From positions 736,001 through 800,000 of the forward strand of contig JBBCJC010000001.1 of NCBI GenBank assembly GCA_037189525.1: DNA of 64,000 nucleotides, given 5' to 3'. Source of the DNA: Gemmatimonadales bacterium (GTDB lineage: Bacteria; Gemmatimonadota; Gemmatimonadetes; Gemmatimonadales; GWC2-71-9). Position numbers and translations under genes: made by a program. Shown here one piece after another: positions 7,785 to 61,813 of the stretch (position 1 is its first letter; the number at the start of each line of letters is the position of its first letter). Under the pieces are notes generated by a model. That model saw nothing but the letters and a program-made list of their open reading frames with translations. It was not told the DNA's origin and did not search any database.

Positions 7785-8246
7785 ATGCGCGACTCCCCTC
7801 ACCATCGCGGCTCAACCACCCTGCTCGTCGTCGTTGCCCTCATCGGCATCGGTCTCGGCGTGGGGATGTTCACCTTTTCCTACGGGAAAGGAGCATCCTA
7901 CCTGACCAACGACCCCGCGGCATGCGCCAACTGCCATATCATGGAGCCGCAATACTCCGCCTGGCTCACCGGCAGCCATCGCAAGGCGGCGACCTGCAAC
8001 GATTGCCATACACCCGACGGCATGATCGCGAAGTACGTGACCAAAGCGAGTAACGGGTTCTGGCACTCCACGGCATTCACGTCCGGAATCTTTCACGAGC
8101 CGATCCAGATCAAGGCTTCGAATCGCGCTATTGCCGAGCAACGTTGTCGTGATTGCCATGAACCGATGGTTCATGCTATCCTGGCGAATAACGACGGATC
8201 GGTCAGCTGCCTTTCGTGCCACCAATCGGTCGGGCATCGACGATGA
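7785..8246 (+). CDS. nrfH: Cytochrome c nitrite reductase small subunit (tetraheme, NapC/NirT family)
   Basis: N-terminal TM helix; four CXXCH motifs (CANCHIM, CNDCH, CRDCH, CLSCH); directly upstream of nrfA. Confidence 0.9.
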   Translation: MRDSPHHRGSTTLLVVVALIGIGLGVGMFTFSYGKGASYLTNDPAACANCHIMEPQYSAWLTGSHRKAATCNDCHTPDGMIAKYVTKASNGFWHSTAFTSGIFHEPIQIKASNRAIAEQRCRDCHEPMVHAILANNDGSVSCLSCHQSVGHRR

Positions 8247-8274
8247 TCGTACACGCACTGCCGGAGGAGAATTG

Positions 8275-9678
8275 ATGACTGAGCGTCCCAACCGCCCTCG
8301 CCGTCTGCTGCTGGTAGGGCTCGCAGCTGCATTGACGACGGTGGCCGTGCTCGCCCTGCTCGTCAACATCGTCGAGCGTAAGCAGGAAGCGCGCGCCCCG
8401 TTCTTCCAGGTCGTGGAGATTACCGACACCACGGAGGCGCCCGAGGTTTGGGGACGCAATTTCCCGCATCAGTACGACAGCTACCGGCGGACGGTGGATC
8501 AGGAGCGAACCCGGTTCGGAGGCAGCGAGGCGATGCCGCGCACGCCGACTTCCGCGGACCCCCGATCGGTCGTTGCGCAGTCGCGTCTCGATGAGGATCC
8601 TCGGCTGCGCACCATGTGGGCGGGCTACGCCTTTTCCCGTGATTTCCGGGAAGAACGCGGGCATGCCTACATGCTGGACGATCAGACGTTCACCGAGCGC
8701 CAGGCCGTCGGCCAGCCGGGCACGTGCATGCATTGTCATGCCTCGGTGTATCTGCCCTACATGCGTCTCGGCAACGGCGACCTGACCCGCGGCTTCGAGC
8801 TGATGAACCAGATGCCGTACGCCGAAGCGCGCACCAAGGTGACGCATCCGGTGGCGTGCATCGACTGTCACACGCCAGGCACAATGGAACTGCGGGTCAC
8901 TCGGCCCGGATTCATCGAAGGGCTCAGAGCATACAAGGCCTCCCAGGGCGTGCCCGACTATGACGTGAACCGGGATGCCACCCGCCAGGAAAAGCGCGCC
9001 TTCGTCTGCGGCCAGTGCCACGTGGAGTACTACTTCAAAGGCTCGGAGAAGCGTCTTACCTATCCGTGGTCCAAGGGACTCAAAGTCGATCAGATCTACG
9101 CCTACTACGACAGCGTAGCATTTCGAGATTGGGTCCACGCAGAGACGGGCGCCGAGGTCCTGAAGGCGCAACATCCCGAATTCGAGATGTGGAACCAGGG
9201 TGTTCATGCCAGGTCAGGCGTGACCTGCGCCGACTGCCATATGCCGTATCAACGGGTCGGCGCGCTCAAGGTGACCGACCACCATATTCGCAGTCCGCTG
9301 CTCAATGTGAGCAACGCATGCCAGACCTGTCATCCGGTAGCCGCGGATGAACTCAAAGCCCGGGCCGAACTGATCCAGGAGAACACCTATCGCCTGCGGG
9401 ACCAGGCCATGGATGCGCTGGTCGGCCTGATCGGGGATCTCTCTGCCGCCCGGACCGCGGGACGTCCCGACGCCGAACTGAGCACCGCGCGGAGCCTGCA
9501 ACGGCGAGCCCAGTTCTATCTCGACTTCATCGAGGCAGAGAACTCGATGGGATTCCACGCACCGCAGGAAGCCGCGCGCATCCTTGGTGAAGCAATCGAC
9601 TACGCCCGCCAGGGACAGATTGCCATCCGTGATCGCGCTTTTCATCCGCGCCTCCCGCCCGTACCGGCAGCACGCTGA
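8275..9678 (+). CDS. nrfA: Ammonia-forming pentaheme cytochrome c552 nitrite reductase
   Basis: Five heme motifs (CMHCH, CIDCH, CGQCHVEYYF, CADCHMPY, CQTCH); KAQHPEFE; ENSMGFHAP. Confidence 0.92.
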   Translation: MTERPNRPRRLLLVGLAAALTTVAVLALLVNIVERKQEARAPFFQVVEITDTTEAPEVWGRNFPHQYDSYRRTVDQERTRFGGSEAMPRTPTSADPRSVVAQSRLDEDPRLRTMWAGYAFSRDFREERGHAYMLDDQTFTERQAVGQPGTCMHCHASVYLPYMRLGNGDLTRGFELMNQMPYAEARTKVTHPVACIDCHTPGTMELRVTRPGFIEGLRAYKASQGVPDYDVNRDATRQEKRAFVCGQCHVEYYFKGSEKRLTYPWSKGLKVDQIYAYYDSVAFRDWVHAETGAEVLKAQHPEFEMWNQGVHARSGVTCADCHMPYQRVGALKVTDHHIRSPLLNVSNACQTCHPVAADELKARAELIQENTYRLRDQAMDALVGLIGDLSAARTAGRPDAELSTARSLQRRAQFYLDFIEAENSMGFHAPQEAARILGEAIDYARQGQIAIRDRAFHPRLPPVPAAR

Positions 9679-38676: not shown

Positions 38677-39843
38677 ATGCCTTCACCGATCGACATCCTC
38701 CTCCCCGCCGACCAGGCCGAGGGAACGACCAACACCGTCGGCAAGTGGTTCAAAGCCGCCGGCGATACCGTCCAGGCGGACGAACCGCTGCTCGAGATCA
38801 CCACCGATAAGGTCACGGTCGAGATCGCGGCGCCGGCCGATGGGGTCCTGATCGAAATCCTCAAAGCCGAGGGTGATACCGTCGAGCCGGGTGAGCCGCT
38901 TGGCCGGATCGGAGCGGCCGGGTCGACCGCTCCTGCAGCGAGCGATGCGCCGGCCGCAGCAACCGGCGCGCCCGAGGCGGCGCCCAGAGCGAAGACGCCA
39001 GCCGCGGATGCCGGGCAGAACACCGAGTTGAGTCCGGCCGTCCGTCGGCTCATCAAAGAGTACGGGCTGGATGCAGCCGCGATTACGGGCACCGGGCGTG
39101 GCGGACGGGTTACGGTCGAAGACGTCGAGCGCGCGCGCAATGCGGGCGGGGCCCAGTCCGGCGGACGCCGGATTCCGCACACCCCGATGCGCAAGAGCAT
39201 CGCGCACCACATGGCGCAGAGCATGGCCACGGCGCCGCACGTCACCTCGGTCTTCGAGGCCGACCTCTCGGCCGTCATTGCGCACCGGAATGCCAACAAG
39301 GCGGACTTCGAATCGCGCGGCGCCAAGCTCACGTTCACGGCCTATTTCGTTCGCGCCACGGTTGCTGCGCTCCAGGCGGTTCCCGAGGTCAACAGCCGCT
39401 GGCACGATGACGCGCTCGAACTCTTCGACGACTGCAATGTCGGCGTCGGCACCGCGCTCGAAACCGGCGGGTTGATCGTCCCGGTCATCATGCAGGCGCA
39501 GACTCTCGATCTGGAACAGACGGCCGAGCGGCTGCAGGATCTGACTGCGCGGGCGCGGGGCGGTACGCTGACGCCGAAGGACGTTCAGGGCGGCACCTTC
39601 ACGATTTCGAATCACGGCGTGAGCGGCAGCCTGGTTGCGGCACCAATCGTCATCAACCAGCCCCAGTCGGCCATCTTGGGCATCGGCAAGCTCGAGAACC
39701 GGGTCGTGGCCGATCCGAACGGCGTGCCGGTGGTGCGGCCGCGGATGTACGTCACGCTGACCATCGACCACCGCGTGCTCGACGGGTTCCAGGCCAATGC
39801 GTTCCTCACCAAGTGGGTGGAGACTATAGAAACCTGGTCGTAG
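38677..39843 (+). CDS. 2-oxoacid dehydrogenase E2 (dihydrolipoamide acyltransferase)
   Basis: Lipoyl TDKV, E3-binding SPAVRRL..GTGRGGRVT, catalytic DHRVLDG. Confidence 0.92.
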   Translation: MPSPIDILLPADQAEGTTNTVGKWFKAAGDTVQADEPLLEITTDKVTVEIAAPADGVLIEILKAEGDTVEPGEPLGRIGAAGSTAPAASDAPAAATGAPEAAPRAKTPAADAGQNTELSPAVRRLIKEYGLDAAAITGTGRGGRVTVEDVERARNAGGAQSGGRRIPHTPMRKSIAHHMAQSMATAPHVTSVFEADLSAVIAHRNANKADFESRGAKLTFTAYFVRATVAALQAVPEVNSRWHDDALELFDDCNVGVGTALETGGLIVPVIMQAQTLDLEQTAERLQDLTARARGGTLTPKDVQGGTFTISNHGVSGSLVAAPIVINQPQSAILGIGKLENRVVADPNGVPVVRPRMYVTLTIDHRVLDGFQANAFLTKWVETIETWS

Positions 39844-44478: not shown

Positions 44479-44988
44479 TCAGATCGGTTTGAAGTGCTCG
44501 AACGGCTGGTGGCAGGCGTGACAGACGTGGATTGCTTTGCACGCGGTCGAACCGAACTCGCTCTCGCGGCGGGTATCCTTCGAGCCACAGAACGGGCAAG
44601 CCACGGTACGCGTCGGTCCGCCCAACGGCACCAGCTCGAGACCACCAGGCCCGACCGGCCCCGGGGGCGCAATGCCGTAGCTGCGCAGCTTTTCCCGCGC
44701 GTCGGCGGTAATCCAATCGGTGGTCCAGGGCGGCGTGAAGACGGTCTTGACGGTCACGGTCTCGAAGCCGTGCCGCTCGAGCGTCTCCGCGATGTCCCGC
44801 TCGATCACCTTGGTAGCCGGGCAGCCCGAATAAGTCGGCGTCACCAGCACCGTCACCCGATTGCCCTCGACCTCGGCGGAACGGACGATGCCGAGCTCGA
44901 CCACATCGATGACGGGTACCTCGGGATCCTTGACCTCGTGCAGGATCTCGAAGACCCGTTCGGCCTCGGCAGACCGGATCGCTACCAC
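44479..44988 (-). CDS. paaD: Phenylacetyl-CoA epoxidase subunit D
   Basis: DPEVP, TPTYSGCPA, WTTDWI, CPFC, FGSTACK, CxxCxxPFEHFK. Confidence 0.92.
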   Translation of the reverse strand: MVAIRSAEAERVFEILHEVKDPEVPVIDVVELGIVRSAEVEGNRVTVLVTPTYSGCPATKVIERDIAETLERHGFETVTVKTVFTPPWTTDWITADAREKLRSYGIAPPGPVGPGGLELVPLGGPTRTVACPFCGSKDTRRESEFGSTACKAIHVCHACHQPFEHFKPI

Positions 44989-45734
44989 GTGGCTCCCGGA
45001 TGCGAACGGGGCACGATCTGCATCTCGGCCAGGAGCCGGCCGAGCGATTCGGTATGCCGCCCCTTCCGGCCGCCGGTCATCCGCATTGGCGTTTCGGGAA
45101 TCGTAAGCCGCGCACGTTCGAGCACGTCGGCCACGACCGCACGCCACTCCGCCTTGAGATCGGGCCGGACCGGGAGACCAAGTTCGGCCTGCGCAGCCTG
45201 ATCGACGGCGTCGGTCGCGAACATCTCGTCGGTCCAGGGCCAGAGCGCGTCGACCGCTTCCTGGGCACGGCGGTGACTTTCCTCGGTCCCGTCGCCCAGG
45301 CGAACCACCCACTCACCCGCGTGACGGAGATGGTAGCGGTTTTCTTTCTGGGCCTTGGCGGCGATTCCGGCGAGTTCCTCGTGGGCCGCCTGCTTGAGCC
45401 ACTCGAACAGGAAGTGGGTCCACGCCGAGAAAAAGAGCTGGCGCACCATGGTAAAGGCGAAATCGCCGCGGGGCAGCTCCACCATCTGCAGGTTGCGGAA
45501 CTGGGTCTCGTCGCGCCAGTAGGCCAGCGCATCGGCGTCCCGGCCCTGACCTTCGACTCGGCCAGCCAGGTCGAGCAGCAGCTGGGCAGCACCGGTCAGG
45601 TCGAGGGCGATATTGGTGATCGCAATATCCTCTTCCAGGATCGGCCCGTGTCCGCACCACTCCGCATTGCGATGGCCCAGGATCAGGCGATCGTCGCCCA
45701 GGCGGAGGAGAAACTCGAAGAGAGGCGCCGACAC
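44982..45734 (-). CDS. paaC: Phenylacetyl-CoA epoxidase subunit C
   Basis: EWCGHGPILEEDIA, KENRYH, RLGDGTEES, GRHTE, HPGATW. Confidence 0.93.
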   Translation of the reverse strand: MSAPLFEFLLRLGDDRLILGHRNAEWCGHGPILEEDIAITNIALDLTGAAQLLLDLAGRVEGQGRDADALAYWRDETQFRNLQMVELPRGDFAFTMVRQLFFSAWTHFLFEWLKQAAHEELAGIAAKAQKENRYHLRHAGEWVVRLGDGTEESHRRAQEAVDALWPWTDEMFATDAVDQAAQAELGLPVRPDLKAEWRAVVADVLERARLTIPETPMRMTGGRKGRHTESLGRLLAEMQIVPRSHPGATW

Positions 45735-45735
45735 G

Positions 45736-46038
45736 TCAGACGCCTCGCACGCCGCGCGGGATCTTATAGAACTGCGGGTGCCGGTAGGCCTTGTCGTTAC
45801 CCGGATCGAAGAACGGCCCCGCATCGCTCGGCGCGGAGGCGATGATCGCCTGGCTGGGCACCACCCAGAGACTGACCGCTTCACCCCGCCGGGTGTAGAC
45901 GTCGCGCGCGTTCTGCAGCGCGATTTCCGCGTCGGGGGCATGCAGGCTGCCGGCGTGCTCGTGCGGCTTCCCGTTCGGCGGCTGGGTAAAGACCTCCCAG
46001 AGCGGCCACTCGTTGCGATCGGTCGTTTCGGTCGCCAT
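45736..46038 (-). CDS. paaB: Phenylacetyl-CoA epoxidase subunit B
   Basis: WPLWEVF, HAGSLHA, ARDVYTRR, YRHP. Confidence 0.93.
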   Translation of the reverse strand: MATETTDRNEWPLWEVFTQPPNGKPHEHAGSLHAPDAEIALQNARDVYTRRGEAVSLWVVPSQAIIASAPSDAGPFFDPGNDKAYRHPQFYKIPRGVRGV

Positions 46039-46052
46039 GCTGTCCTCGTTCG

Positions 46053-47015
46053 TTAGGCGGCCTGGGTCGCGCTCTGCCGCTTGGCCGCATAGGCCAGCGC
46101 CGCATCGCGTACCCACTGCCCGTCTTCGTGCGCCTTCCGGCGCGCCGCGATCCGTTCCTGGTTGCAGGGCCCGTTCCCGGCCAGCACCTGCTTGAACTCC
46201 TCCCAGTCGATCGGACCGGTCAACCAGTCGCCCGAGGCTTCGTCGAAGCGCAACTCGGGATCGGGAATCGTGAGGTCGATGGCCTTGGCCTGGGGAATGG
46301 TCAGGTTGATGAACCGCTGGCGCAGTTCGTCGTTCCCCTTCTGCTTCACCTTCCAACGCAGCAGGTCGCCGCTGTTGGGCGAATCCTTGTCGTGCGGCCC
46401 GAACATCATCAGCGATGGCCACCACCAGCGATTGACCGAATCCTGCACCATCGCCTTCTGGGCCGGGGTGCCCCGGGCCAGGGTGGCGCAGATCTCGTAA
46501 CCCTGCCGCTTGTGGAAGTTCTCTTCTTTACAGATCCGGACCATGGCCCGGGCATAAGGCCCGTAGGACGCGTGGGCCAGCATGGTCTGGTTGACGATGG
46601 CCGCGCCGTCGACGAACCAGCCGATCACACCCATATCGGCCCAGCTCAGGGTCGGATAGTTGAAGATGCTGGAATATTTGGCGGTGCCGTAGAGGTACTG
46701 GTCGATCAGCTCGTCGCGGGAGGTGCCGAGGGTCTCGGTGCCGCAATAGATATAGAGGCCGTGGCCGGCTTCGTCCTGGACCTTGGCCAGGAGCGACATC
46801 TTCCGCCGGAGGCTGGGCGCCCGGGTAATCCAGTTGCCCTCCGGGAGCATCCCGACCACCTCGGAGTGGGCGTGCTGAGACATCATCCGGGTCAGCTGCC
46901 GGCGGTACTTCTCCGGCATCCAGTCCTTCGGTTCGATGGTTTCGCCCGCATCGATCCGGGCATCGAACTCGGCCTGCTTGACCGGATCCTCGGTGATCGT
47001 CTTATCGGTGGCCAT
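46053..47015 (-). CDS. paaA: Phenylacetyl-CoA epoxidase catalytic subunit A
   Basis: [40 protein letters not shown]. Confidence 0.95.
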
Positions 47016-51680: not shown

Positions 51681-52013
51681 TCACGGTTTTGGGACGACGC
51701 GAGGATCGGGGACCACGGGAAGGGATACGAACGACGCATGGACGCCGCCCCGATGGACCGCCTGCTGCGCTACGACCGGTACCGTTCGCTCGAGCACGAC
51801 CGGCACAGGATGAGCGACGGCAGGCCGATACACATCCGCGAACAGCGTCATCCCGTCACGCATTGGGATCGGGACGGCAAACTGGCGAACGATCGAGTCG
51901 GCTGAACCCGCAACCGGCCAACGATTCGGCATCACGGTATCGAGCGCGACGGCACGAGAGCCGGGCAACACAGCAACGAGCATCGAGAGGACAGCTACGA
52001 GGGGTCTGGTCAT
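51681..52013 (-). pseudogene. CocE/NonD hydrolase remnant (N- and C-termini fused)
   Basis: IPMRDG..LFADVYRP...PVVLERT joined directly to VAQQAVH...ASFVSLPVVP; catalytic core absent. Confidence 0.7.
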
Positions 52014-52074: not shown

Positions 52075-52635
52075 TCACTGATCCCAGGAATCGTGAAATA
52101 GCTGCGCCGACGCACTGCCCCCTGCCCGCTCCAGGTCCGGTGCCTCGGCCCCTCGTGCCGGATCGACCTGGCAGTAACGTCGATCGAAAAAGAGCAGCGG
52201 ATCGCGGGGCGGAAGTCCCAGATTCCGATCAATCACCTCGACAGTCACGACCAGATGGTCACCGCCCTCGAACGTCGCATCGATCTTGCCACCGAGAACG
52301 AATGCAGCCCCTTCCAGGCGATGCACCTCACCCCACTCGACGAATCGATGCGGAGGTGGCGACGCTGCTTTCCACGAACCGGCAAAGTAGGTAGACAACG
52401 CCTGCTGGTCCGCTCGCAACACGTTGACGGAACAAGGCCGCCCCGGCGTGAGCAACGAGGCCATCCGTGCCTGTTTCCCGACACACAACAGCACCAGGGG
52501 TGGCGACAACGACAGCGACGTGAACGACCCGATCGTCATACCCTGTACCCCGCTGCCATCAGAGATCGCGAGCACCACGACACCCGTCGGGTATTGGCTC
52601 AATGCCTCTCGGAACGCAGCGGGTTCGATCGTCAC
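52075..52635 (-). CDS. Flavin reductase (HpaC-like component)
   Basis: FREALSQYPTGVVV, SFTSLSLSPPLVL, GGDH; GTGA overlap with the NIPSNAP stop. Confidence 0.88.
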   Translation of the reverse strand: MTIEPAAFREALSQYPTGVVVLAISDGSGVQGMTIGSFTSLSLSPPLVLLCVGKQARMASLLTPGRPCSVNVLRADQQALSTYFAGSWKAASPPPHRFVEWGEVHRLEGAAFVLGGKIDATFEGGDHLVVTVEVIDRNLGLPPRDPLLFFDRRYCQVDPARGAEAPDLERAGGSASAQLFHDSWDQ

Positions 52636-52973
52636 AGGGGCTGTCCTCCTTCGAGCAAGGCTTCCATCCGAAAGAACGGCGCGGGATTCATCAATCGTGT
52701 TTCCTGAGTTTCCAGCAATGGATGAATTTTGGCGAGATAGCCGGGCCACCGCGGATCCGCCCGCATCCGTTCGCGGCATTCAGTCCGATGCTCGTAGCTC
52801 CGATAGGCCCAGAGATGAACGACCTGGTTGAGCGGGCCGATCTCCGTCACATAGTATCCGACGCAATGCGGCAGATACTCCCGCTGGATCAGCATACCCT
52901 CCGCCTGATACACCGCGAGATACTCGGCCAACTTGCCCATCTGAAACGTGTATGTGCGCTGCTCGACGATCAT
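52632..52973 (-). CDS. NIPSNAP family protein
   Basis: EQRTY, TEIGPLNQVVHLWAY, DPRW. Confidence 0.88.
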   Translation of the reverse strand: MIVEQRTYTFQMGKLAEYLAVYQAEGMLIQREYLPHCVGYYVTEIGPLNQVVHLWAYRSYEHRTECRERMRADPRWPGYLAKIHPLLETQETRLMNPAPFFRMEALLEGGQPL

Positions 52974-52976
52974 GCC

Positions 52977-53528
52977 TCACCCTTCCAGAAATGGAGTCTC
53001 GCCTTCGCCCCGAAGGCGGATATCGAATCGAAACATCTCCGCCGCGCCATCCGGTACGAGCATCAGCCGGCTCCGAACGGCCGGATCGATTGCCGCAAGC
53101 TGCGGATCAGCGGCGACGGCCGCCTCATCCGGAAAGAATGCTTCCGTTTCGAGCGGCCGCATCAACCCGGACCCCAGCAAGCGGAAGCACAGGTGCGGCG
53201 CCCGGATCGAACCGCCGGATGTCGCGACGGGTCTTCCCGGCCTCAAGGTCCGAAAATGATAGCATCCGTCCTCGTCCGTCCAGACTCGGCCCCAGCCCCT
53301 GAAACGGTCGGCGGCACCAACGCGCTGGCCGGCCGGATCGACCTGCCACAGTTCGACGATGACGTTGACCACCGGATGCCCTTCGCCGTCGATGATCCGG
53401 CCACGGACTTCGACCACATCACCCTCGACTCGCGTTCCATCCCGCCCGACGGTCAGATCTCCGTCGGTCGGGCCAATGAAGGCCGGCGGAAAGAACGGAC
53501 CCGTCGTATGCCACGCCATGCCCGTCAC
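52977..53528 (-). CDS. pcaG: Protocatechuate 3,4-dioxygenase-like alpha subunit (divergent)
   Basis: GPFF, ELWQ, GWGR, APH, RFDIRLRGEGETPF. Confidence 0.8.
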   Translation of the reverse strand: MTGMAWHTTGPFFPPAFIGPTDGDLTVGRDGTRVEGDVVEVRGRIIDGEGHPVVNVIVELWQVDPAGQRVGAADRFRGWGRVWTDEDGCYHFRTLRPGRPVATSGGSIRAPHLCFRLLGSGLMRPLETEAFFPDEAAVAADPQLAAIDPAVRSRLMLVPDGAAEMFRFDIRLRGEGETPFLEG

Positions 53529-54241
53529 GGGTGATCGTCCTCCAGCGGAGTCTCACGACTGCCGCCGAGCACGAAGTCATGGGAATAACCGAGCGCGCCG
53601 TCCGCTGTCGAAAGGTCCGGATCGAAGGCGGAGACCAATCGAGATCGCGCGCGCTCGTCGCGGATGCTGTTGAGCAGGAGATCGTACGCGTTGAGCGGCT
53701 CGCCCGGGAAATACATCTGAGTCACCAGACGTTTGCCGAACCCGTCGCCGAAGATCGAGAAATGAATGTGCGGGGGCCGCCACCACCCGGCCAGCTGCCC
53801 ATCACCGTCATAGGGCACTGCGTACCCGCCAGGCTTGATGGTACGCAGCTGATACCGCCCTTCGGCGTCGGTCACGATCCGGCCGACCCCTTCGAAATTG
53901 GGATCCACCGGCACCGGCGACGGATCGGCCGGGTGAATGTATTTGCCCGCCGAGTTGGCCTGCCAACACTCGAGCAACGCGTGACGGATCGGCCGGCCGG
54001 CTTCGTCCACGATACGCCCGGTCACCACGATCAGCTGACCAAGCGCGCGCGGCCTGCCAGGCGAGATAACCGACAGATCGCAGGTGGGCGGAAACGTCAC
54101 CAGCTCCGCTCCAAACGAGGCCGGCACCTCTACTGGCGCCACGCGCGGCCACGAGGGCGCCAACGGAGATCGTAACAGACTCTTCCGATAGCCGGGCACA
54201 TGGCGCGGCGGCTGGGTGGCGTCGCTCTGGTCGACCGTCAT
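53525..54241 (-). CDS. pcaH: Protocatechuate 3,4-dioxygenase-like beta subunit (divergent)
   Basis: WQANSAGKY, TIKPGGY, WRPPHIHFS, RLVTQMYF; the 2-Tyr/2-His Fe ligands are present. Confidence 0.85.
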   Translation of the reverse strand: MTVDQSDATQPPRHVPGYRKSLLRSPLAPSWPRVAPVEVPASFGAELVTFPPTCDLSVISPGRPRALGQLIVVTGRIVDEAGRPIRHALLECWQANSAGKYIHPADPSPVPVDPNFEGVGRIVTDAEGRYQLRTIKPGGYAVPYDGDGQLAGWWRPPHIHFSIFGDGFGKRLVTQMYFPGEPLNAYDLLLNSIRDERARSRLVSAFDPDLSTADGALGYSHDFVLGGSRETPLEDDHP

Positions 54242-55407
54242 ACCACTTCCTTCTCCTGAAGCGCCAGACCGGCGACTCGGGTTCGATCGAGCTCGACGCC
54301 GAGCCCTGGGCCCGAGGGTACGGCCATGGCACCATCCCGAATAGCCAAGGCTCCGGTCACGACATCCTCACCAAGCACGTGGTGTCCGCAATCATTGGCG
54401 CGCTGGATCCCGGGAAACGCCGCCGTGAGGTGGAGATTCGCGGCTGTTCCAATACCGGTTTCGAAGAGACTGTGAATCGCGACCTCGAACCCAAGTGGCT
54501 CCGCAGCATGGACCAGCGCGCGGAACCGGCTCACTCCTCCCCAGAGATACAGGTCGGCCAGAATCACGTCGACCGGCCTGCTGTGTACCGCGGCTGCCAG
54601 ATGATCTGGCTGAATGATGCACATATTGGTGGCCACCGGCGTTCGCACCTGGCTGCGCAGGCGGGCGAGTCCGGCCTGATCGTCGGTCGGATCCTCGAAG
54701 AACTCGAGACCCAAATCATCCATGGACCGACAGAGCGCAATCGCCTCTGCAGGGGGATAGCCGGCATTGGGATCGAACCTGAGCGCGGCCTCGGGCAGAC
54801 GCTCGCGAAGCGCCGACATGACGGCCCGATCGAAGGCGGGACTGACGGCCGCACTCTTGTACTTGAAGCAACGAAACCCATACTGATCGGACTGGCGAAC
54901 GGCATACTCGACAACGGCATCGATCCGACCGAGATCGCCGAACAGCCGAGTCACCTCGGCCCTGGACAACGGATGGTCGAGCATCAGCGCAGGAAGCGGA
55001 CAAACCAGATCGACCGGCCCCCGTCGACCGGCACCGAGCATCCCACCCAGCGATACGCCGGCCATCCGGGCGCTCAGATCCCACAATGCGAGATCGAGTC
55101 CGCCTGAAACCGACCACCCGGTCCGGCCGAATCGATTGTCGAACACCGAACGAGCGTAGCGGCGTTCGACGACTCGGCGCTCGATCGGGTCTACGCCGAT
55201 CAGTCCTACCGCCAGCTGAGCGGCCAGATGAAAAGCTTCGGCTGTGCCGTGGGCCTCTCCATAGCCGCAGAACTCGCCATCGCTGGTTTCGACTTCGATG
55301 ACCGTCCGCAGGGTATCCTGCATCACGTACATCGAGCTCAGATAAACCATCCGGAGCGGAATCCGCACCTGCCACAGGCGGACACGACCGATCCGTCGGG
55401 AACTCAT
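54238..55407 (-). CDS. Enolase-superfamily enzyme, glucarate dehydratase-like subgroup
   Basis: KYK, RFDPN, EDP, ATNM, HS and PGLGVELD, matching the GlucD-type ligand pattern. Confidence 0.82.
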   Translation of the reverse strand: MSSRRIGRVRLWQVRIPLRMVYLSSMYVMQDTLRTVIEVETSDGEFCGYGEAHGTAEAFHLAAQLAVGLIGVDPIERRVVERRYARSVFDNRFGRTGWSVSGGLDLALWDLSARMAGVSLGGMLGAGRRGPVDLVCPLPALMLDHPLSRAEVTRLFGDLGRIDAVVEYAVRQSDQYGFRCFKYKSAAVSPAFDRAVMSALRERLPEAALRFDPNAGYPPAEAIALCRSMDDLGLEFFEDPTDDQAGLARLRSQVRTPVATNMCIIQPDHLAAAVHSRPVDVILADLYLWGGVSRFRALVHAAEPLGFEVAIHSLFETGIGTAANLHLTAAFPGIQRANDCGHHVLGEDVVTGALAIRDGAMAVPSGPGLGVELDRTRVAGLALQEKEVV

Positions 55408-56069
55408 GCCGGCATCCGCCCAACCGAGAATACCGGCTTCTGCCGGTCGGGCGACACGAACTGCGCATCCGACGGCCGGCCGAGCGTGGCCATCGGGAGC
55501 GCCTCCCGCAACGCCACCGCAACCGGCTCGGCCCGGCTGCCGTCCGGGACCTCGATGGCTAGTCCAACCTGCAGGACCCGGCAGAGCGCATCGAGCCGAA
55601 GGAGCGCAGCAACCGACCAGACCCGCGGGTCGAGGCGAAGCCATGCGACATGCGCGCCTTGCAGCCACGCCGCGATCTCATCGAAGCTCGCGTCCTCCAC
55701 GGTATGGCCATCAGCGCCCAGAGTGTCAGGATCGATTATCTGACCGGTACCTCGGACCGAGCCGCCCAACCACTGGCTGAGCGAAACCCCGGCAGCGGCA
55801 GCGGTCAGGGCAGCAAGCCCGTTCTCGACGCCCGAGAAGGCAACCCAATCGAGCCCGCCGGAGACTGGACGGTCAGCCCAACGCCGGCTTTCGGCAACGA
55901 TGGGGCGACCCAGCTGCAGCGTTAGGCGATCGGCGAGGCGGCTAGCCAGCCCGGCATCGTTCCTCGCAACGGATCGACTCTGGTTGCCACGGTCGTCCAC
56001 GAGAAAGACGACGAGTTCGTCACCGACCTCATCCGCCGAGGCATAGACCAGAACGCGATCATCGAGCAC
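55404..56069 (-). CDS. Degenerate enolase-superfamily-like protein
   Basis: AFSGVENGLAAL.A.AAGVSLSQWLGG capping-domain motif; overlaps both neighbours; no catalytic motifs. Confidence 0.55.
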   Translation of the reverse strand: MLDDRVLVYASADEVGDELVVFLVDDRGNQSRSVARNDAGLASRLADRLTLQLGRPIVAESRRWADRPVSGGLDWVAFSGVENGLAALTAAAAGVSLSQWLGGSVRGTGQIIDPDTLGADGHTVEDASFDEIAAWLQGAHVAWLRLDPRVWSVAALLRLDALCRVLQVGLAIEVPDGSRAEPVAVALREALPMATLGRPSDAQFVSPDRQKPVFSVGRMPA

Positions 56070-56808
56070 GAGGCACCTTGGCCAGATCGAGCACCGATTC
56101 GCCGGCATCGATCCGGGCTATCCGCTTCGCTTCCGCCTGTTCGAGGGACGAAACGAGCTCCGCCACCTGCGCTGCGAGCGCCCGCGGAACGAAGACCACC
56201 CCCGCATCGTCGGCGACGACGAGGTCACCGGGGTGGACCGTGATACCCGAGATCACGACAGCCTGATTGACGGCCATCGTCTCGAGCCGGTACTTCCCCG
56301 TCATCGGACTCGAGCCCCGAGACCAGACCGGATAGCCCAGCTGGCGCAACGAAGCAACATCTCGTACCGCGCCGTCCACAACGGCGCCAAGTTCTCCCTG
56401 GCGGAACCCGATGGCGGCCGAGATGCGTCCCATGCTGGAGATTCCCGGGGCGCCGGCCACGACGAGCACGTCACCCCGGTCGGCTTGATTGTGCGCTTCG
56501 ATATCGGCGAGCCGCACATCACCTTCCTGCACGCGGCGCCGCATGACCTCGGCAGACGGCAGCTCCGCATCACGCACGACATGCCGGACCGTGAGCGCGC
56601 GCCCGACGACGCGACGGCCCGGCATGGTCGGATTCAGTTCGGACGCAGGAACCGCCCCAACGACCCCCAACCCATCGAGCACATCGGACACCGCGCTGGA
56701 GGCGTCATCGATACTGCGGAAGAACGCGAGCACCTCGTCCGGAACCTGCGGCATCGGGCGTGCTCCGATACGATCAGCCGCCAGACGTCCGGTCAGCGAG
56801 CGCGTCAT
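56059..56808 (-). CDS. RraA/HMG-CHA aldolase family protein
   Basis: VSDVLD, GRALTV, VVDGAVRD, VHPGDLVVADDAGVVFVP. Confidence 0.85.
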   Translation of the reverse strand: MTRSLTGRLAADRIGARPMPQVPDEVLAFFRSIDDASSAVSDVLDGLGVVGAVPASELNPTMPGRRVVGRALTVRHVVRDAELPSAEVMRRRVQEGDVRLADIEAHNQADRGDVLVVAGAPGISSMGRISAAIGFRQGELGAVVDGAVRDVASLRQLGYPVWSRGSSPMTGKYRLETMAVNQAVVISGITVHPGDLVVADDAGVVFVPRALAAQVAELVSSLEQAEAKRIARIDAGESVLDLAKVPRAR

Positions 56809-56809
56809 C

Positions 56810-57712
56810 TCAACGCCCCACCCCTGGCGCCAGCGGACCGAATCGCTGCTCGGGAAGTCCCACGACTCCGGGCTTCACGGCAAACAGGCCACCGGCCAAC
56901 GGTTGCTCCGCACGTTCCTCCGGCGTCAGCCGCTGCCAGGCCGTCGTGATATAGAGCGTATCGAGCGCCGGACCACCGAAGGCACAGCAGGTTGCGTTGC
57001 GCACCGGCAGCGAGACGATGCGATCGACCGTCCCATCCGGGCGATAGCGCACCACGCGCCCTCCGTTGTACTCGGCGTTCCAGAGGCATCCTTCTGCGTC
57101 GACCGTCGAGCCGTCGGGGCGGCCCGGCCGGCCGGTCAGGTCCACCAGCACCCGATCCGGACCCAGCCTGCCTGCTTCGAGATCGAAATCGAAGACCTGA
57201 ATCTGATAGCGGTAGGTATCGGCGAAATACATCCGGCGCCCGTCCGGACTCCACGCCGTGCTGTTCGGCACCACGATCCCATTGAAGAATCGTTCTACCC
57301 GCCCGTCGGGATCGAGACGATAGAGTGAGCCGGTGGGCGACCGATCGCCCGTATTCATCGTGCCACACCAGAAGCGGCCTGCCCGGTCGACTCGGCCGTC
57401 GTTGAACCGGTGACCGGCCGGGACATCGCCCGGCGACGCCAACCATTTCAGCGTTTCGGTCTCCAGATCCACCAGCCAGAAGGCTGTCTCCAGCGCAGCA
57501 AGCAGCCTATCCTCGCCGGCGACGAACCCGATCGATCCGACCATTTCCGGCATCGGAACCGTCCCGCTCGCTCCGGAAGCCGGCTCGAACCACCAGATCA
57601 GCGGGGCACGGGTATCAACCCAGTAGAGCCGCTGGCGGCGGTCGCACCAGATCGGGCTTTCCCCGAGATGGTTTTCGGCCGGCAACACGCACGTCGCAAT
57701 GAGATCGGTCAT
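56810..57712 (-). CDS. SMP-30/gluconolactonase family lactonase
   Basis: LGESPIW, RFNDG, PN..WSPD, PDG..VDAEG, FGG...LYITT. Confidence 0.9.
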   Translation of the reverse strand: MTDLIATCVLPAENHLGESPIWCDRRQRLYWVDTRAPLIWWFEPASGASGTVPMPEMVGSIGFVAGEDRLLAALETAFWLVDLETETLKWLASPGDVPAGHRFNDGRVDRAGRFWCGTMNTGDRSPTGSLYRLDPDGRVERFFNGIVVPNSTAWSPDGRRMYFADTYRYQIQVFDFDLEAGRLGPDRVLVDLTGRPGRPDGSTVDAEGCLWNAEYNGGRVVRYRPDGTVDRIVSLPVRNATCCAFGGPALDTLYITTAWQRLTPEERAEQPLAGGLFAVKPGVVGLPEQRFGPLAPGVGR

Positions 57713-58686
57713 CCCTGATACACCACGTTGAGGAGCGGTTCGCCTCGCGCGAGCCGATCGAGATTCGACGCAATAGTCGCCCAGCGGCGATTCACCATCC
57801 CGATCGTCCAGGCGGAGGAATGTGGCGTCATATAGACATTGGACAGCTCGTGAAATGGATGGCGCGACGGGCGAACATCCGCAACGTCGGGGGTCGGATA
57901 CTGATACCATGCGTCGAGCACCGCGCCCCCGATCCGCCTGGACGAGAGGGCATCGAACAGAGCATCCTCATCGACGATCTGACCTCGGGCCACGTTGATC
58001 ACCACGGCGGTCGGCCGCAGCAGGGCAAGTTCCCGCGCTCCGATCATCCCGATCGTTTCGGGGGTCAGTGCCGCCGTCACGACCAGAAAGTCGACCTGCC
58101 CCAGGAATTCGTCCAAACGTCCGACACCGCCGAACCAGTCGACTCCAGGTGGCAACGGCCGCTCCGTGCGGCTGCACACCATCACAGTCGTGTCCATCGC
58201 CTTCGCGCGCGGCACGATCGCCTCGGCGATGTGTCCAAACCCCAGGATTCCGACGGTCTTCCCGGCGAGTTCGTCCTGATAGGGCCCGGCGGTCCGGCCG
58301 CCGAGTCGCCAGGATCCTTCGATCCGGAAAGAGCGCTCGGCCTCCATGAAGCGCGAACACCATTGCAGCATTGCCAGCACGACGTACTCAGCAATCGGCA
58401 CTTCGTGGCCGAAGGCGTTGCACACCTTGCACCCGGGCGGCAGATACTCCAGATCGACCGCATCGTAGCCGGCCCCGCCCACCTGGAGCAGCTCGAGATC
58501 CGGTGCCGGCGGCATCGAGCGATCATAGCGCATCGTAATCGCGGCCCGCACCCCGACCAGCTCGGCTTCGACCGCGCGATACGGCGTATCGTCCGGCAGC
58601 GGCACGAACTCGATTGGCGCCGTTACCAGACCCTCGAGTCGCTCCTGCTGCGCCGTGGCCAACGAACCGAGCAGGGCAACCTTCAC
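57709..58686 (-). CDS. D-isomer-specific 2-hydroxyacid dehydrogenase
   Basis: GILGFGHI, INVARG, LDAW, TPHS. Confidence 0.88.
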   Translation of the reverse strand: MKVALLGSLATAQQERLEGLVTAPIEFVPLPDDTPYRAVEAELVGVRAAITMRYDRSMPPAPDLELLQVGGAGYDAVDLEYLPPGCKVCNAFGHEVPIAEYVVLAMLQWCSRFMEAERSFRIEGSWRLGGRTAGPYQDELAGKTVGILGFGHIAEAIVPRAKAMDTTVMVCSRTERPLPPGVDWFGGVGRLDEFLGQVDFLVVTAALTPETIGMIGARELALLRPTAVVINVARGQIVDEDALFDALSSRRIGGAVLDAWYQYPTPDVADVRPSRHPFHELSNVYMTPHSSAWTIGMVNRRWATIASNLDRLARGEPLLNVVYQG

Positions 58687-60167
58687 TCCAGATCGCCGTC
58701 CGTCGCGGCGCGGGCCAGGAACTGGCGAACCTTATCCATATACATGGTCCGATCGTGGCTGTTGACCAGCGCCCCCGCCATCCGAACCGGGTCGCCGAAG
58801 AAGTACCGTTCGTAGAGCACCTGCCGCGTCCCGAAGGCCGAGATGGCCGTATCCCACGCCAGACGGAACAAGGGGATGCGGTCCAGCGCATCGAGGCGTG
58901 CTGCCTGAAAGTAACGCTTTACATCCTCGATCAGCGGCCCGTTGACGTCGGCTTCCGTCGGCATGGCAACCAGCCCCGCGGCGCCCAACTGCTGAATGAT
59001 TTCGATCATGCGCGGGTAGAGCCGCGGATAGAGATTCCGAGCCGCATCGAGCGGATCCCACGCAGGACGCATCACGCCGTACTCGTCGAGCGCAGCCCCC
59101 GCCTCCGCCGCAACCCGAAAGGCCCGCATCGTTTCCAGATTGACCCAAATCTCGGCCAGCTTTTCCTGGACGTGCTGAAACTGCTCGATGGCAATGGCAT
59201 CGATCATCATCGACGCGAGCCCGAGGAGATACTCGGTCTTGGCGATGTTCTTGATCAGCACCTGATGAGCCATGTTGGCCAGCGCGCCCGTTTTCTGGTA
59301 GGCGGCATTGCAACGCGCCACATCGCGGTAGAGAAAGACCCGTTCCCACGGCACGAACACGTCGTCGAAGATCACGACGGCATCCATCTCCTCGAAGCGC
59401 GAGGCGAGGGGATGATCGAAATGCGACCGGCCATGATCGACGGTTTCGCGGCAGAGGAACCGCAACCCCGGGGTATCCGTGGGGATCGAGAGGGCGTAGG
59501 CGTAGCGCTGGTCTTCTTCGGTGTTTCTGAGAAAGGTCGACGGAAACACCATGATCTCGTCGGCCACCGGCAGCGTGGCGAGCATCCGGCAGCCGCGCAC
59601 GACGATGCCGGCGTCGTTCTCGTCCTTCACCTTGGCGGCCAGGAACGGGTCGGCCTGCATCGCGGCGTGTACCGAGCGATTGGCCTGCGGGCTGCTGAGG
59701 GTGTGCGTCAGGCAGAGATCGTGGTCACGGATGTAGGCGTGATAGGCCCGGATATTCTCGCCGAAGCGCGGCTCGGCCTCACCCAGAAACGCGGCGCCTG
59801 CTGCGTATCCGGAAATCGACCGATTGATGTAGTCGGGCAGCCGTCCCATCATGCCCAGCGTCGCCCCGGTCCAGTGCGCCATCGACCGCCCGACCGCCCT
59901 CAGGTCCTCCGCGGTGGTCGGGTTCTGAAAGGAGCGCCCGACCCGAAACGGTCCGCCGGGCGAATCGAACAGCGTCAGCGCAGGCTCCTGCCACTGGAGA
60001 TCGTAGAGACGGGCCAGGGTTTTGATCCCTCCGGCAAAGCCGGGGGAAGTTGTAGGATCATTTATCCGCTCCCCGCGATGCCAGAGAGCAGGAGTCCTAT
60101 CCTTAAGTCGTTCAATGACTTGAGACCCTCGTCGCGCTCCGGAAGGAGACTGGGAGCTCATTTTCAT
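58683..60167 (-). CDS. hpaB: 4-hydroxyphenylacetate 3-monooxygenase-type oxygenase component
   Basis: GRLPDY, THTL, ATL, FPST, SRFEEMDA, VFVPWERVF, RQVLYERYFFGDP; exact start uncertain (60161-60185). Confidence 0.88.
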   Translation of the reverse strand: MKMSSQSPSGARRGSQVIERLKDRTPALWHRGERINDPTTSPGFAGGIKTLARLYDLQWQEPALTLFDSPGGPFRVGRSFQNPTTAEDLRAVGRSMAHWTGATLGMMGRLPDYINRSISGYAAGAAFLGEAEPRFGENIRAYHAYIRDHDLCLTHTLSSPQANRSVHAAMQADPFLAAKVKDENDAGIVVRGCRMLATLPVADEIMVFPSTFLRNTEEDQRYAYALSIPTDTPGLRFLCRETVDHGRSHFDHPLASRFEEMDAVVIFDDVFVPWERVFLYRDVARCNAAYQKTGALANMAHQVLIKNIAKTEYLLGLASMMIDAIAIEQFQHVQEKLAEIWVNLETMRAFRVAAEAGAALDEYGVMRPAWDPLDAARNLYPRLYPRMIEIIQQLGAAGLVAMPTEADVNGPLIEDVKRYFQAARLDALDRIPLFRLAWDTAISAFGTRQVLYERYFFGDPVRMAGALVNSHDRTMYMDKVRQFLARAATDGDLE

Positions 60168-60170
60168 GCC

Positions 60171-60215
60171 TTGATTGTTGAACAATTAAGATATATTCAT
60201 GAATCCTTCTCGCAA
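60171..60215 (-). promoter_or_regulatory. hpaB-operon promoter and GntR-type operator
   Basis: Palindrome ATTGTT-G-AACAAT (60174-60186); minus strand TTGCGA (60215-60210), 16 nt, TATCTT (60193-60188). Confidence 0.6.
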
Positions 60216-60313
60216 GCCATTGCGTCGACGTTGTTTACTTGGAGAGGATTGTTCATCAGATGAACCCGACCCTGCCCCGGCTCAGTCGAGAGCGGCCGAC
60301 CGCCCGAGGATCG

Positions 60314-61021
60314 ATGACCTCTCCCGCCACCCCGCGTACCCACGACCCACTGTCGGATGCGAACCGCGCGGACGTCGCCGCCCATACGCTTGCATCCCGG
60401 ATTCTCCGTGGCGAGCTTGCTCCCGGCACGCGCCTCCCGGAAATCGAGCTCGCGACCGCACTGGACGTCTCCCGCAACACGCTGCGCGAAGCGATCAAGA
60501 TTCTGGCGGCGCGCGGGTTGGTGCAGCTGCAGCGGCACCGGAGCGCTACAGTGGCCACGCTGTCGGCGGATGGCGTCCGGGATCTCTATCGGATGCGCCG
60601 GCTGCTCGAACTGTCCGCCGTCGAGGCCAGCGCCGGCCAACCGGCCGAGAGCTTTCATGAGATCGGCGCAGCGATCGGCCAACTGACCCGGGCGGCAACG
60701 CTCGACGACCCGGTTGCGATCATCGAGGCCGACCTCGCCTTTCATCGGGCCGTGGTCCGCCTCCATGGCAGCGAACGCATCGAATCGGCGTTTACGGCGG
60801 GCCTCGACGAGTTGCGGCTGGGATTGGCCCTGCTCGATGCGCGGACCGAGCCGACGCTGGGCGGGCTGGTTGACGACCATCGGGCCATGTACGGACTGCT
60901 GCTGCGTGGCGAGCAGGATGGGTGTCGGCAGTTACTCCGCGCGCATCTTGGCGCATCGGAGGAGCAGGTACTGACGGCGCTCGAACGAGCCGGCAACGGA
61001 GGTTCGAGCAACGGACCCTGA
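60314..61021 (+). CDS. GntR family regulator (FCD domain)
   Basis: PGTRLPE..LA..LDVSRNTLREAI; DLAFH and DDH FCD residues. Confidence 0.9.
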   Translation: MTSPATPRTHDPLSDANRADVAAHTLASRILRGELAPGTRLPEIELATALDVSRNTLREAIKILAARGLVQLQRHRSATVATLSADGVRDLYRMRRLLELSAVEASAGQPAESFHEIGAAIGQLTRAATLDDPVAIIEADLAFHRAVVRLHGSERIESAFTAGLDELRLGLALLDARTEPTLGGLVDDHRAMYGLLLRGEQDGCRQLLRAHLGASEEQVLTALERAGNGGSSNGP

Positions 61022-61039: not shown

Positions 61040-61813
61040 TTGGTGTCATCCGATCCGATTCACGACGGCAACGTCTCCAGTACCCTGGCCGACGGCATCG
61101 CCACGATCAGCTTTGGTCACCCCAAGAGCAATTCCCTCCCGGGCGCGCTGCTCGGCAAACTCGCCGACACCATTCGAGAAGCTGGTAACGACCCCGCCGC
61201 GCGCGTCATCGTGCTGCGCAGCGAAGGAACCGGCCCGTTCTGCGCCGGCGCATCGTTCGACGAGCTCCGCGCCGTCAGCGACGCCGCCGCCGGCCAGCGG
61301 TTCTTCTCGGGGTTTGCCAAGGTGATCCTGGCCATGATCCGGGCGCCCAAGTTCGTGCTGGCGCGGGTCCACGGCAAAGCGACCGGCGGTGGGATCGGCG
61401 TGATTGCAGCCGCCGACTGGTCGATTGCCACGACCGGCGCCGCAATCAAACTGAGCGAGCTCGCCGTCGGGATCGGCCCGTTCGTGGTGGGACCGGTAAT
61501 CGAGAAGAAGATCGGCTTGGGCGCCTATGCCGCGATGAGCGTCGACGCCGACTGGCGCTCCGCCGAATGGGGTGCGCAGCATTCGCTCTACGCCGAAGTC
61601 CACCCCTCCGTAGCGGAGATGGACGCCGCCCTGGATAAGCGAGCCGCGTGGCTGGCCTCGTGCAACCCGCTGGCCATGGCGCAGATCAAGGCCGTCTTCT
61701 GGGAAGGCACCGAGGGATGGGACGAACTGCTCGCCAAGCGCGCGGCCATGAGCGGCGGGCTCGTGCTGACGGAGCCCGCCCGCGCCGCCATCGCGGCGGC
61801 GTTCAGGCGCTAG
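61040..61813 (+). CDS. Enoyl-CoA hydratase/isomerase family protein
   Basis: FCAGA, GGGIG, LSELAVGIGP. Confidence 0.88.
   Translation: MVSSDPIHDGNVSSTLADGIATISFGHPKSNSLPGALLGKLADTIREAGNDPAARVIVLRSEGTGPFCAGASFDELRAVSDAAAGQRFFSGFAKVILAMIRAPKFVLARVHGKATGGGIGVIAAADWSIATTGAAIKLSELAVGIGPFVVGPVIEKKIGLGAYAAMSVDADWRSAEWGAQHSLYAEVHPSVAEMDAALDKRAAWLASCNPLAMAQIKAVFWEGTEGWDELLAKRAAMSGGLVLTEPARAAIAAAFRR

Follow-up and report, generated by a model that had tools for sequence, protein, structure and literature searches.

What does a bacterium degrade with an operon in which a 4-hydroxyphenylacetate hydroxylase, an intradiol dioxygenase and enzymes of sugar-acid type stand side by side? The question is raised by positions 52075-61021 of the window, the 64,000-nucleotide stretch of Gemmatimonadales DNA analyzed here (C1:736001-800000 of genome G000, which measures 4.65 Mb and is 98.1% complete), where the ORF (open reading frame) list and Pfam place ten minus-strand ORFs divergent from a GntR/FCD regulator gene. 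The answer proposed below, to which we assign a probability of roughly 0.7 from sequence comparisons, is that the operon degrades 4-hydroxyphenylacetate by an ortho-cleavage route that replaces the HpaD meta route of its sister species. The latter use the homoprotocatechuate meta pathway (hpaBC plus hpaEDFGHI), which has the same upper hydroxylase family; in G000, however, HpaD was not found, and the operon has in its place an Fe(III) dioxygenase of the intradiol type, with lower enzymes unrelated to those of the meta pathway. A hydroxylase followed by a meta operon is the typical organization according to PMC12718150, and the word "intradiol" does not occur in the available portion of that paper.

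The gene order, common direction, overlapping or abutting junctions and divergent GntR gene reported in the first-pass annotation were recovered for all eleven ORFs. The nine junctions measure -4, -4, +1, -11, -4, -4, -4, +3 and -4 nt, that is, a 4-nt overlap at six, an 11-nt overlap at one, and gaps of 1 and 3 nt at two. Ten of the eleven ORFs were named by Pfam, and the remaining one, at 55404-56069, had no Pfam match. Seven genes make up what is called the cassette here, namely those for an SMP-30 lactonase, an RraA aldolase, a dead enolase paralog, a GlucD-type enolase, PcaH, PcaG and a NIPSNAP protein. By tblastn, hpaB and the genes for the RraA protein, the dead enolase, PcaH, PcaG and NIPSNAP are each single-copy in G000.

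A gene-neighborhood search, proposed with the first-pass annotation, found the same set together in other genomes. The cassette occurs in seven, of which six belong to one genus (G000, G126, G418, G406, G413 and G407) and one, G301, to another family. The gene order is identical in G126 and G418 (66-95% identity), G406 and G413 keep it with each operon spread over two contigs, and G301 keeps it at 39-69% identity, without the dead enolase and with one extra aldehyde dehydrogenase gene. In G407 the ten structural genes are rearranged into two arms around a TetR gene, one reading dehydrogenase-lactonase-aldolase and the other enolase-dioxygenase-NIPSNAP-hpaB-hpaC. Because the order is kept in relatives, including one of another family, the arrangement is not due to chance. 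The GlucD-type enolase was detected in 3 of the 401 genomes sampled across the phylum and in 6 of the 22 sampled from the genus.

The upper step is the best defined. HpaB (58683-60164, minus strand, in an ORF that opens with TTG at 60185) is of the Thermus type and scores 626.3 bits against TIGR02309 (HpaB-1), for which the cut-off is 480.2. It aligns with 2yyg at an E value of 3.9e-152 and retains R100, Y104, H142, S197 and T198, the five residues that hold 4-hydroxyphenylacetate in the Thermus enzyme (PMC10537072). Rhodococcal phenol and alkylphenol hydroxylases have His-Tyr in place of Ser-Thr (PMC6710988). The HpaB of G000 is 80-83% identical to those of the genomes with HpaD, and the motifs are the same, including the carboxylate-binding Ser-Thr. 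The flavin reductase (52075-52635, minus strand, PF01613, Flavin_Reduct) has HpaC_Thermus as its best NCBIfam model, at a score below the cut-off, and hpaC directly follows hpaB or the dehydrogenase gene in 10/10 HpaD-type genomes. From family and residues, HpaB and HpaC are predicted to make homoprotocatechuate. One hpaB match, in locus L235 (G403), is aberrant at the R100-Y104 motif and has neither the dehydrogenase gene nor gntR beside it, possibly through decay or an assembly error.

The distribution of the cassette suggests what follows. HpaB is present in 16/22 genus genomes. Cassette PcaH (at least 58% identity) and the enolase occur in the same six of them, none with HpaD, and HpaD exceeds its cut-off in 11, which are the remaining ten HpaB genomes plus one without an HpaB match. 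Cassette and HpaD thus occur together in 0/22, and in G301, which has the cassette, HpaD was not found. In all three HpaD loci inspected hpaE, hpaG and hpaH adjoin hpaD, and two of the three also have an HpaF-like gene below the cut-off. The genes hpaB, dehydrogenase and hpaC are contiguous in HpaD genomes, which therefore lack precisely the seven genes of the cassette, and in three annotated HpaD-type loci this block runs into paaABCD; the paa genes of the window lie about 5 kb downstream of the operon. From this exclusion it follows that the cassette likely replaces the meta route for homoprotocatechuate, and the simplest reading is that cassette and hpa meta operon consume the same catechol. 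In the meta operons of three relatives (L226-L228), no HpaI aldolase was found among the ORFs scanned, and it may lie elsewhere or in an unnamed neighbor.

Some points weigh against this reading. On the HpaB tree, a single switch between cassette and HpaD is enough (support 71/80). The tree thus holds one replacement event and not 16 independent ones, so that the Fisher value of 1.2e-4 overstates the exclusion and is not a fair probability. The cassette could also have been lost, and hpaD gained, in separate events.

The first-pass annotation had noted that the usual partners of HpaBC and PcaHG are missing from the window, and for HpaD and PcaB the same was found genome-wide. The best TIGR02295 match to HpaD in the whole genome of G000 has an E value of 2.5e-5 and falls below the cut-off, LigB (PF02900) has no match in the genome, none of three PcaB matches in this 98.1% complete genome reaches the cut-off, and no Fe-ADH/maleylacetate reductase was found in it. 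The suggested genome check for pcaBCD and hpaD is thus clear for HpaD and PcaB, and PcaC is possible because four generic CMD-family genes exist; PcaD, PcaIJ and PcaF were not searched. That the cluster might replace the homogentisate/tyrosine route was considered and rejected: HppD is present in 4/5 genomes tested, with an HmgA-like gene beside it in G000. For this purpose PF04209 does not discriminate, since it has no match in 41/41 relatives.

The dioxygenase is encoded by a PcaH-like beta subunit (53525-54241) and a PcaG-like alpha subunit (52977-53528), both on the minus strand and both matching Pfam Dioxygenase_C. As in the protocatechuate branch of the beta-ketoadipate pathway, it is a two-subunit intradiol enzyme, with the Fe ligands Y101, Y140, H158 and H160 (equivalent to Y408, Y447, H460 and H462) and R155 (R457) kept in the beta subunit. 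It differs from that branch at the carboxylate pocket for protocatechuate, which is formed by alpha-R133 and beta-W449: the beta subunit has V142 for W449 and P143 for R450, and the alpha subunit has S120 for R133, with a conserved Arg four residues further on. The alignment shows Ser at the alpha-133 position here, Arg in 1eo2 and His in 2bux, which we take to be R133 and its mutant. Further differences from the beta-ketoadipate branch are the separate tree branch, the absence of any PcaB found and the aldolase in place of thiolysis.

The pair Ser133/Val449 is present in 7/7 cassette genomes and in the eight further clade loci examined; a ninth, L003, has a different enolase. Arg133/Trp449 is found in 7/7 canonical PcaHG of Gemmatimonadota and in L020, and two of the canonical loci carry a full set of PcaB, PcaD, PcaC and PobA type. 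A quick tree built from 93 beta subunits places the cassette PcaH, together with one metagenome row, on a branch with an SH-aLRT support of 95, separate from the canonical branch (99). PcaH scores 219.5 bits against TIGR02422, below the cut-off of 296.4, and PcaG passes TIGR02423 by 0.75 bit (127 versus 126.25). The literature search found no paper on the pocket-residue exchange.

It would therefore be hard to see here an ordinary protocatechuate 3,4-dioxygenase next to unrelated sugar-acid genes. The slight pass of PcaG is in favor of that explanation, as is the fact that SMP-30 and GlucD-type families act mostly on sugar acids; PcaH below its cut-off, the change of both carboxylate-pocket residues, the lack of a PcaB match above the cut-off in the genome, the conservation of the order down to 39-69% identity and the PcaH-family gene near the enolase in 24/33 loci (a count biased upward) all oppose it, and we consider it very improbable. 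The enzyme may be PcaHG-like in its working, but it should not be classed with the protocatechuate 3,4-dioxygenases.

Type II protocatechuate 3,4-dioxygenases have a Trp-to-Val exchange at beta-449, and the small residue at that position here recalls them. The cluster could accordingly be imagined as the known ortho pathway for 4-sulfocatechol, in which a modified PcaHG likewise serves a catechol other than protocatechuate, and more distant PcaH relatives do adjoin genes resembling 4-sulfomuconolactone hydrolase (4-SLH), PcaB and TauE. There, however, the substituent leaves as sulfite, and the genes of the route are PcaH2G2, pcaB2, 4-SLH and maleylacetate reductase (PMC5632844). None of the lower ones is in the cluster, where alone 4-SLH was checked; PcaB and Fe-ADH were not found genome-wide, and the sulfo-linked loci lie on other PcaH branches, so this explanation too has only a slender chance. 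Such loci, L059-L068 (e.g., L062:9824-12856), have a PcaH-like gene with the motif Y-P-N-P and no adjacent PcaG match. Genes resembling PcaB and 4-sulfomuconolactone hydrolase come next, and resolvase and TauE genes lie close by. The loci occur in metagenome-assembled genomes (MAGs) from different phyla, with coordinates and identity nearly the same in each, and are likely a mobile module for sulfonated aromatics.

Exclusion and active-site residues together favor homoprotocatechuate-type substrates over the rest of the list in the first-pass annotation (protocatechuate, gallate, hydroxyquinol and 4-sulfocatechol), of which only 4-hydroxyphenylacetate and homoprotocatechuate are retained. They also support its general proposal, in which a 4-substituted phenol, likeliest 4-hydroxyphenylacetate, would be hydroxylated by HpaBC and cleaved ortho, bypassing beta-ketoadipate. 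Elsewhere the clade may be used differently. HpaB-1 is above the cut-off in only 1/5 proteobacterial genomes tested, and those clusters may therefore serve other substrates. Val449 PcaHG also form a Betaproteobacterial branch of 43 tree rows (L011, L023, L027, L044, L064 and others), the neighbors being HMG-CoA-lyase-like, MetE-like, CaiB, enoyl-CoA hydratase and acyl-CoA ligase genes; in many cases the enolase pair is there too. The HpaB family had no match in 3/3 MAGs of that branch.

How the ring-cleavage product would be processed is a more difficult question. The dioxygenase would break the ring between two of its hydroxyls. When homoprotocatechuate is cleaved ortho, the resulting muconate retains a carboxymethyl branch that chemistry of the PcaC type is unable to take off; because this branch cannot leave as CO2 or sulfite, we infer that a carbon-carbon lyase must act in place of PcaBCD. 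The cassette offers candidates for such a sequence of steps.

The GlucD-type enolase (54238-55407, minus strand, Pfam MR_MLE, 389 aa) should have the GlucD catalytic pattern of K-x-K, D-x-N, E, N and a His-Asp pair, and it does, with K182-x-K184, D212, N214, E238, N261, D285, H312 and D339 intact. This set is invariant or nearly so in 20 homologs, together with family-specific Arg-rich loops. The nearest solved structures (2oqh, 4dye and 3vc5) are titled putative or probable enzymes, and the protein is far below the cut-offs of glucarate dehydratase (TIGR03247, 94 versus 828.7 bits) and muconate cycloisomerase (TIGR02534, 93.4 versus 334.95 bits).

Its neighbor, the 221-aa product of the ORF without a Pfam match (55404-56069, minus strand), was assigned to the enolase family by HHalign (probability 98, E 2.8e-13), and 36/36 among the Foldseek matches listed are enolase-superfamily structures. 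Its alignment covers the capping domain and the last part of the barrel, and the stretch between, which holds K182/K184, D212, N214, E238 and N261, is absent. The first-pass annotation had called it a degenerate enolase; alignments and a complex model point not to decay but to a conserved, internally deleted and catalytically dead paralog. In 21 of the 33 enolase loci compared, a homolog of about 198 aa comes before the enolase; L088 has a longer dead copy of 350 aa, and G301 has none. The single-chain model is moderate (pLDDT 68.6, Atlas matches below 0.9). Modeled with the active enolase, the pair scored 0.89 against 0.00 for the best of three controls, with at least 93% of contacts agreeing between runs and a partner pLDDT of at least 85; the mark used was reached by 116/157 solved complexes and 2/215 mismatched pairs. 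Since enolase oligomers and the GlucD/GlucDRP heterotetramer (4gyp) are already solved, this pass may reflect likeness and not binding. The model nonetheless predicts the dead paralog to be a second subunit of the active enolase. E. coli GlucD/GlucDRP likewise combines an enolase-family enzyme with a paralog partner; in contrast to 4gyp, the partner here has lost about 145 barrel residues, including the metal ligands.

The remaining cassette proteins are less closely tied to known enzymes. The SMP-30/gluconolactonase-family lactonase (56810-57712, minus strand) scores 279 bits against PF08450 (cut-off 26.3), with 7plb and regucalcin as best PDB matches (E about 1e-47) and metal-ligand motifs that align to 7plb. 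HMG/CHA aldolases share the metal and pyruvate motif D(G)-X20-R-D. In the RraA-fold class II aldolase (56059-56808, minus strand, PF03737) the Arg-Asp is kept, and the first metal-motif position is Arg (Ala in G301); the score of 88 bits is below the LigK/GalC cut-offs of TIGR02798 and NF006731 (304.5 and 179 bits). The small NIPSNAP-family protein (52632-52973, minus strand, PF07978) is present in 7/7 cassette genomes, its PDB relatives are all uncharacterized, and it may be a tautomerase or isomerase.

A pyruvate aldolase of RraA type needs a 4-hydroxy-2-oxo acid, one oxidation level above the muconate, so an extra oxidation is required. This can come from a second turnover of HpaB or from the dehydrogenase, and the former is favored because the cassette has no oxidoreductase. 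HpaB would then hydroxylate twice to give 3,4,5-trihydroxyphenylacetate, which the dioxygenase would convert to 4-carboxymethyl-2-pyrone-6-carboxylate. The SMP-30 lactonase would open the pyrone, NIPSNAP may assist tautomerization, and the heteromer of enolase and dead paralog would hydrate the double bond of the branched glutaconate to 4-carboxymethyl-4-hydroxy-2-oxoadipate. The RraA aldolase would split the latter into pyruvate and 3-oxoglutarate, and 3-oxoglutarate would decarboxylate to acetoacetate. As for the 2-hydroxyacid dehydrogenase, it would act upstream as a funnel that also serves the meta route, e.g., as an aryl-lactate dehydrogenase. Every step of this lower route is one that we infer, and the trihydroxy route as a whole is tentative and rather doubtful, although it takes about half of the weight within the ortho-cleavage framework. 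It is favored because a trihydroxy product of HpaB and pyrone formation by PcaHG have both been reported and because adding water beta to a carboxylate is routine for the enolase superfamily. PcaHG converts gallate to the pyrone PDC (PMC12481942), and PMC10832562 cites the intradiol cleavage of pyrogallol, with 2-hydroxymuconate as the product.

Enolase loci outside the group bear on the hydratase step. At 31 further loci (all of the 33 except L001 and L002), hpaB and SMP-30 were each found in 0/31, an HMG-CoA-lyase-like gene in 17 and a family III CoA transferase gene in 13; a PcaH-family gene is near the enolase in 24/33 loci, a count biased upward since 18 of the 33 were retrieved via PcaH. 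This fits a hydratase that makes a 3-hydroxy-3-substituted glutarate, to be split by whichever lyase is present. An RraA homolog occurs in one outside locus, L078, and a DHDPS-type aldolase in L088. At L007, L071, L078, L097 and L088 the same enolase and PcaHG stand with other upper enzymes, namely Rieske oxygenases, a molybdenum hydroxylase or a GMC oxidoreductase. L078 and L097 also encode a TPP enzyme, which shares 52% and 42% identity, respectively, with a TPP enzyme encoded next to the G147 hpa meta operon.

Several observations count against this lower route. Many of the outside loci are short contigs, which makes the gene absences there weak evidence. No motif difference between the HpaB of the two groups marks a double hydroxylase. 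The RraA protein lacks an acidic residue at the position that we take to be Asp102 of CHA aldolase. In G407 the dehydrogenase gene lies on the arm of SMP-30 and RraA, away from hpaB, and the insert in the G301 operon, a CoA-acylating (methyl)malonate-semialdehyde dehydrogenase (502 bits, cut-off 448), would be superfluous to the trihydroxy route. The A. baumannii hydroxylase is presumably of a different class from this HpaB. Its product is 3,4,5-trihydroxyphenylacetate (PMC10537072).

The alternative source of the oxidation brings in the D-2-hydroxyacid dehydrogenase (57709-58686, minus strand, Pfam 2-Hacid_dh), which the first-pass annotation counted simply as a lower-pathway enzyme. Its gene is present in 14/22 genus genomes and, beside hpaB in HpaD-type genomes, is intact in 8/10, shortened in one and not found in one. 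The median dN/dS is 0.21 for 28 pairs of HpaD genomes and 0.24 for 10 cassette pairs from 5/7 cassette genomes. Arg and His of the catalytic triad are kept, and Glu is replaced by Tyr in 13/13 copies read; such substitutions are treated as rare in PMC6303947. Being equally conserved without the cassette, the enzyme does not simply fit that earlier role; by distribution and dN/dS its function is independent of the cassette, and it travels with hpaB.

This evidence counts against a more direct route, in which homoprotocatechuate itself is cleaved to 3-carboxymethyl-cis,cis-muconate and the enolase acts as a cycloisomerase giving an alpha-acyloxy lactone. Within the same framework, SMP-30 would then yield a 2-hydroxy acid and the dehydrogenase a 2-oxo acid, to be hydrated and cleaved by RraA to 2-oxoglutarate and malonate semialdehyde, or to pyruvate and 3-oxoglutarate. 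Such a scheme has the merit that HpaD is replaced one-for-one with HpaB unchanged, and where an enolase-superfamily gene adjoins that of an intradiol dioxygenase, it classically encodes a cycloisomerase. The dehydrogenase gene directly precedes SMP-30 in 6/7 cassette genomes; in G407 it shares an arm with SMP-30 and RraA. A gene of the malonate-semialdehyde-dehydrogenase family lies in the G301 operon and after pcaG in L012. The route would nevertheless call for a 1,6-addition that has no precedent and for an additional enone hydratase, the enolase is far under the muconate cycloisomerase model and carries the GlucD His-Asp pair, and SMP-30 is at 0/31 outside enolase loci; we regard it as unlikely. 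In G000 itself a dedicated malonate-semialdehyde dehydrogenase was looked for and rejected as a partner: the ortholog, at 59% identity, is on another contig beside a class III aminotransferase gene.

That the dehydrogenase travels with hpaB could also be explained if the substrate had a 2-hydroxy or 2-oxo side chain, as 4-hydroxymandelate or 4-hydroxyphenyllactate would. The dehydrogenase would oxidize the side chain, the ring would be cut ortho, and RraA would use the side-chain 2-oxo acid, e.g., to give malonate semialdehyde and 4-hydroxy-2-oxoglutarate, then pyruvate and glyoxylate. The aldehyde dehydrogenase of G301 would find a role, and the enlarged pocket (Ser133, Val449) could admit such side chains. 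The sisters with the same HpaB and dehydrogenase, however, use hpaE-D-G-H, which are specific for an acetate side chain, and the lactate variant ends in maleylacetate, for which no Fe-ADH-type reductase was found in G000. This makes the explanation improbable, and 4-hydroxyphenylacetate remains the preferred substrate.

The favored trihydroxy route has a logic in common with the lower pathway for gallate and protocatechuate 4,5-cleavage (LigI-LigU-LigJ-LigK, GalBCD), namely pyrone hydrolysis, hydration and RraA-fold retro-aldol cleavage of a tertiary 4-hydroxy-2-oxo acid. It differs in that the lactonase would have the SMP-30 fold and the hydratase the enolase fold, the branch would be carboxymethyl and not carboxyl, and the RraA protein is below the LigK cut-offs. 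Work on the fungus Trichosporon cutaneum from the Dagley laboratory in the 1970s, which our literature search did not find, reportedly traced 4-hydroxyphenylacetate biochemically through 3,4,5-trihydroxyphenylacetate and 4-carboxymethyl-4-hydroxy-2-oxoadipate. The intermediates reported there match the favored route, and to our knowledge no genes are known for the fungal pathway. No bacterial ortho route for 4-hydroxyphenylacetate was found in the literature searched, outside which lie most subscription journals and old scans, and names of the "3,4-" form may be missed. In the accessible parts of PMC6307125 and PMC1431709 the mentions of carboxymethylmuconate concern the meta product alone, and in those of the SAR116 preprint 10.64898/2026.07.17.739263 such a PcaHG clade is not discussed.

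The control region and the flanks complete the picture of the locus. The FadR/FCD-type regulator gene (60239-61021, plus strand, Pfam GntR and FCD) lies beside hpaB in 12/16 relatives examined. A palindrome, TTGTT-N-AACAA (60175-60185), just upstream of hpaB, was found by pattern match and is a candidate, likely, operator for GntR; the pattern occurs at most 160 nt from the hpaB start in 10/16 loci (G000 and 15 relatives). The exact form has two copies in the 4.65 Mb genome; the second precedes a cbb3-oxidase-like gene, is probably unrelated and led to no missing pathway gene. A scan of sigma-70 promoters and terminators gave nothing above shuffles. Beyond gntR, a crotonase-family gene (61040-61813, plus strand) is near hpaB in cassette and HpaD-type relatives alike. 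On the other side, an ORF at 51681-52013 (minus strand) is an in-frame remnant of an S15 (CocE/NonD-like) hydrolase with about 480 residues deleted; L001 has an intact protein of 599 aa in this position, and residues 1-77 and 77-104 of the remnant correspond to its start and its end. Farther downstream lie paaA, paaC and paaD, with paaB between (44479-47015, minus strand), a block that abuts the hpa operon in relatives; a 2-oxoacid dehydrogenase E2 gene (38677-39843, plus strand) is convergent with it. The window also has a NapC/NirT and cytochrome c552 pair resembling the NrfHA nitrite reductase (7725-9678, plus strand).

The operon thus probably encodes an undescribed aromatic ring-cleavage pathway built from known folds, with a substrate class that is well supported by sequence. 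A broader claim can be formulated, and we put its chances a little short of even. It would make the cluster the first bacterial gene set for ortho cleavage of 4-hydroxyphenylacetate catechols. It would also make it the type member of a PcaHG clade, widespread and marked by Ser133/Val449, for catechols with non-removable side chains. The claim would further include a new two-subunit enolase-family hydratase, an active enzyme with a half-barrel dead paralog, whose 3-hydroxy-3-substituted glutarate would be split by the RraA aldolase in Gemmatimonadota or by CoA transfer and an HMG-CoA-type lyase in Proteobacteria.

Members of the Ser133/Val449 clade are found in many Proteobacterial genomes from the same search, and genome-based predictions of aromatic metabolism may miscount them, because their genes pass or nearly pass the models of protocatechuate 3,4-dioxygenase. 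Biocatalysis could also make use of a dioxygenase whose products are branched tricarboxylic muconates or pyrones. The catabolism of 4-hydroxyphenylacetate is a textbook case of a meta route, and an ortho route, if true, would add a central ring-cleavage pathway and give functions to four uncharacterized families: the GlucD-like clade, its dead partner, the RraA clade and the bacterial NIPSNAP.

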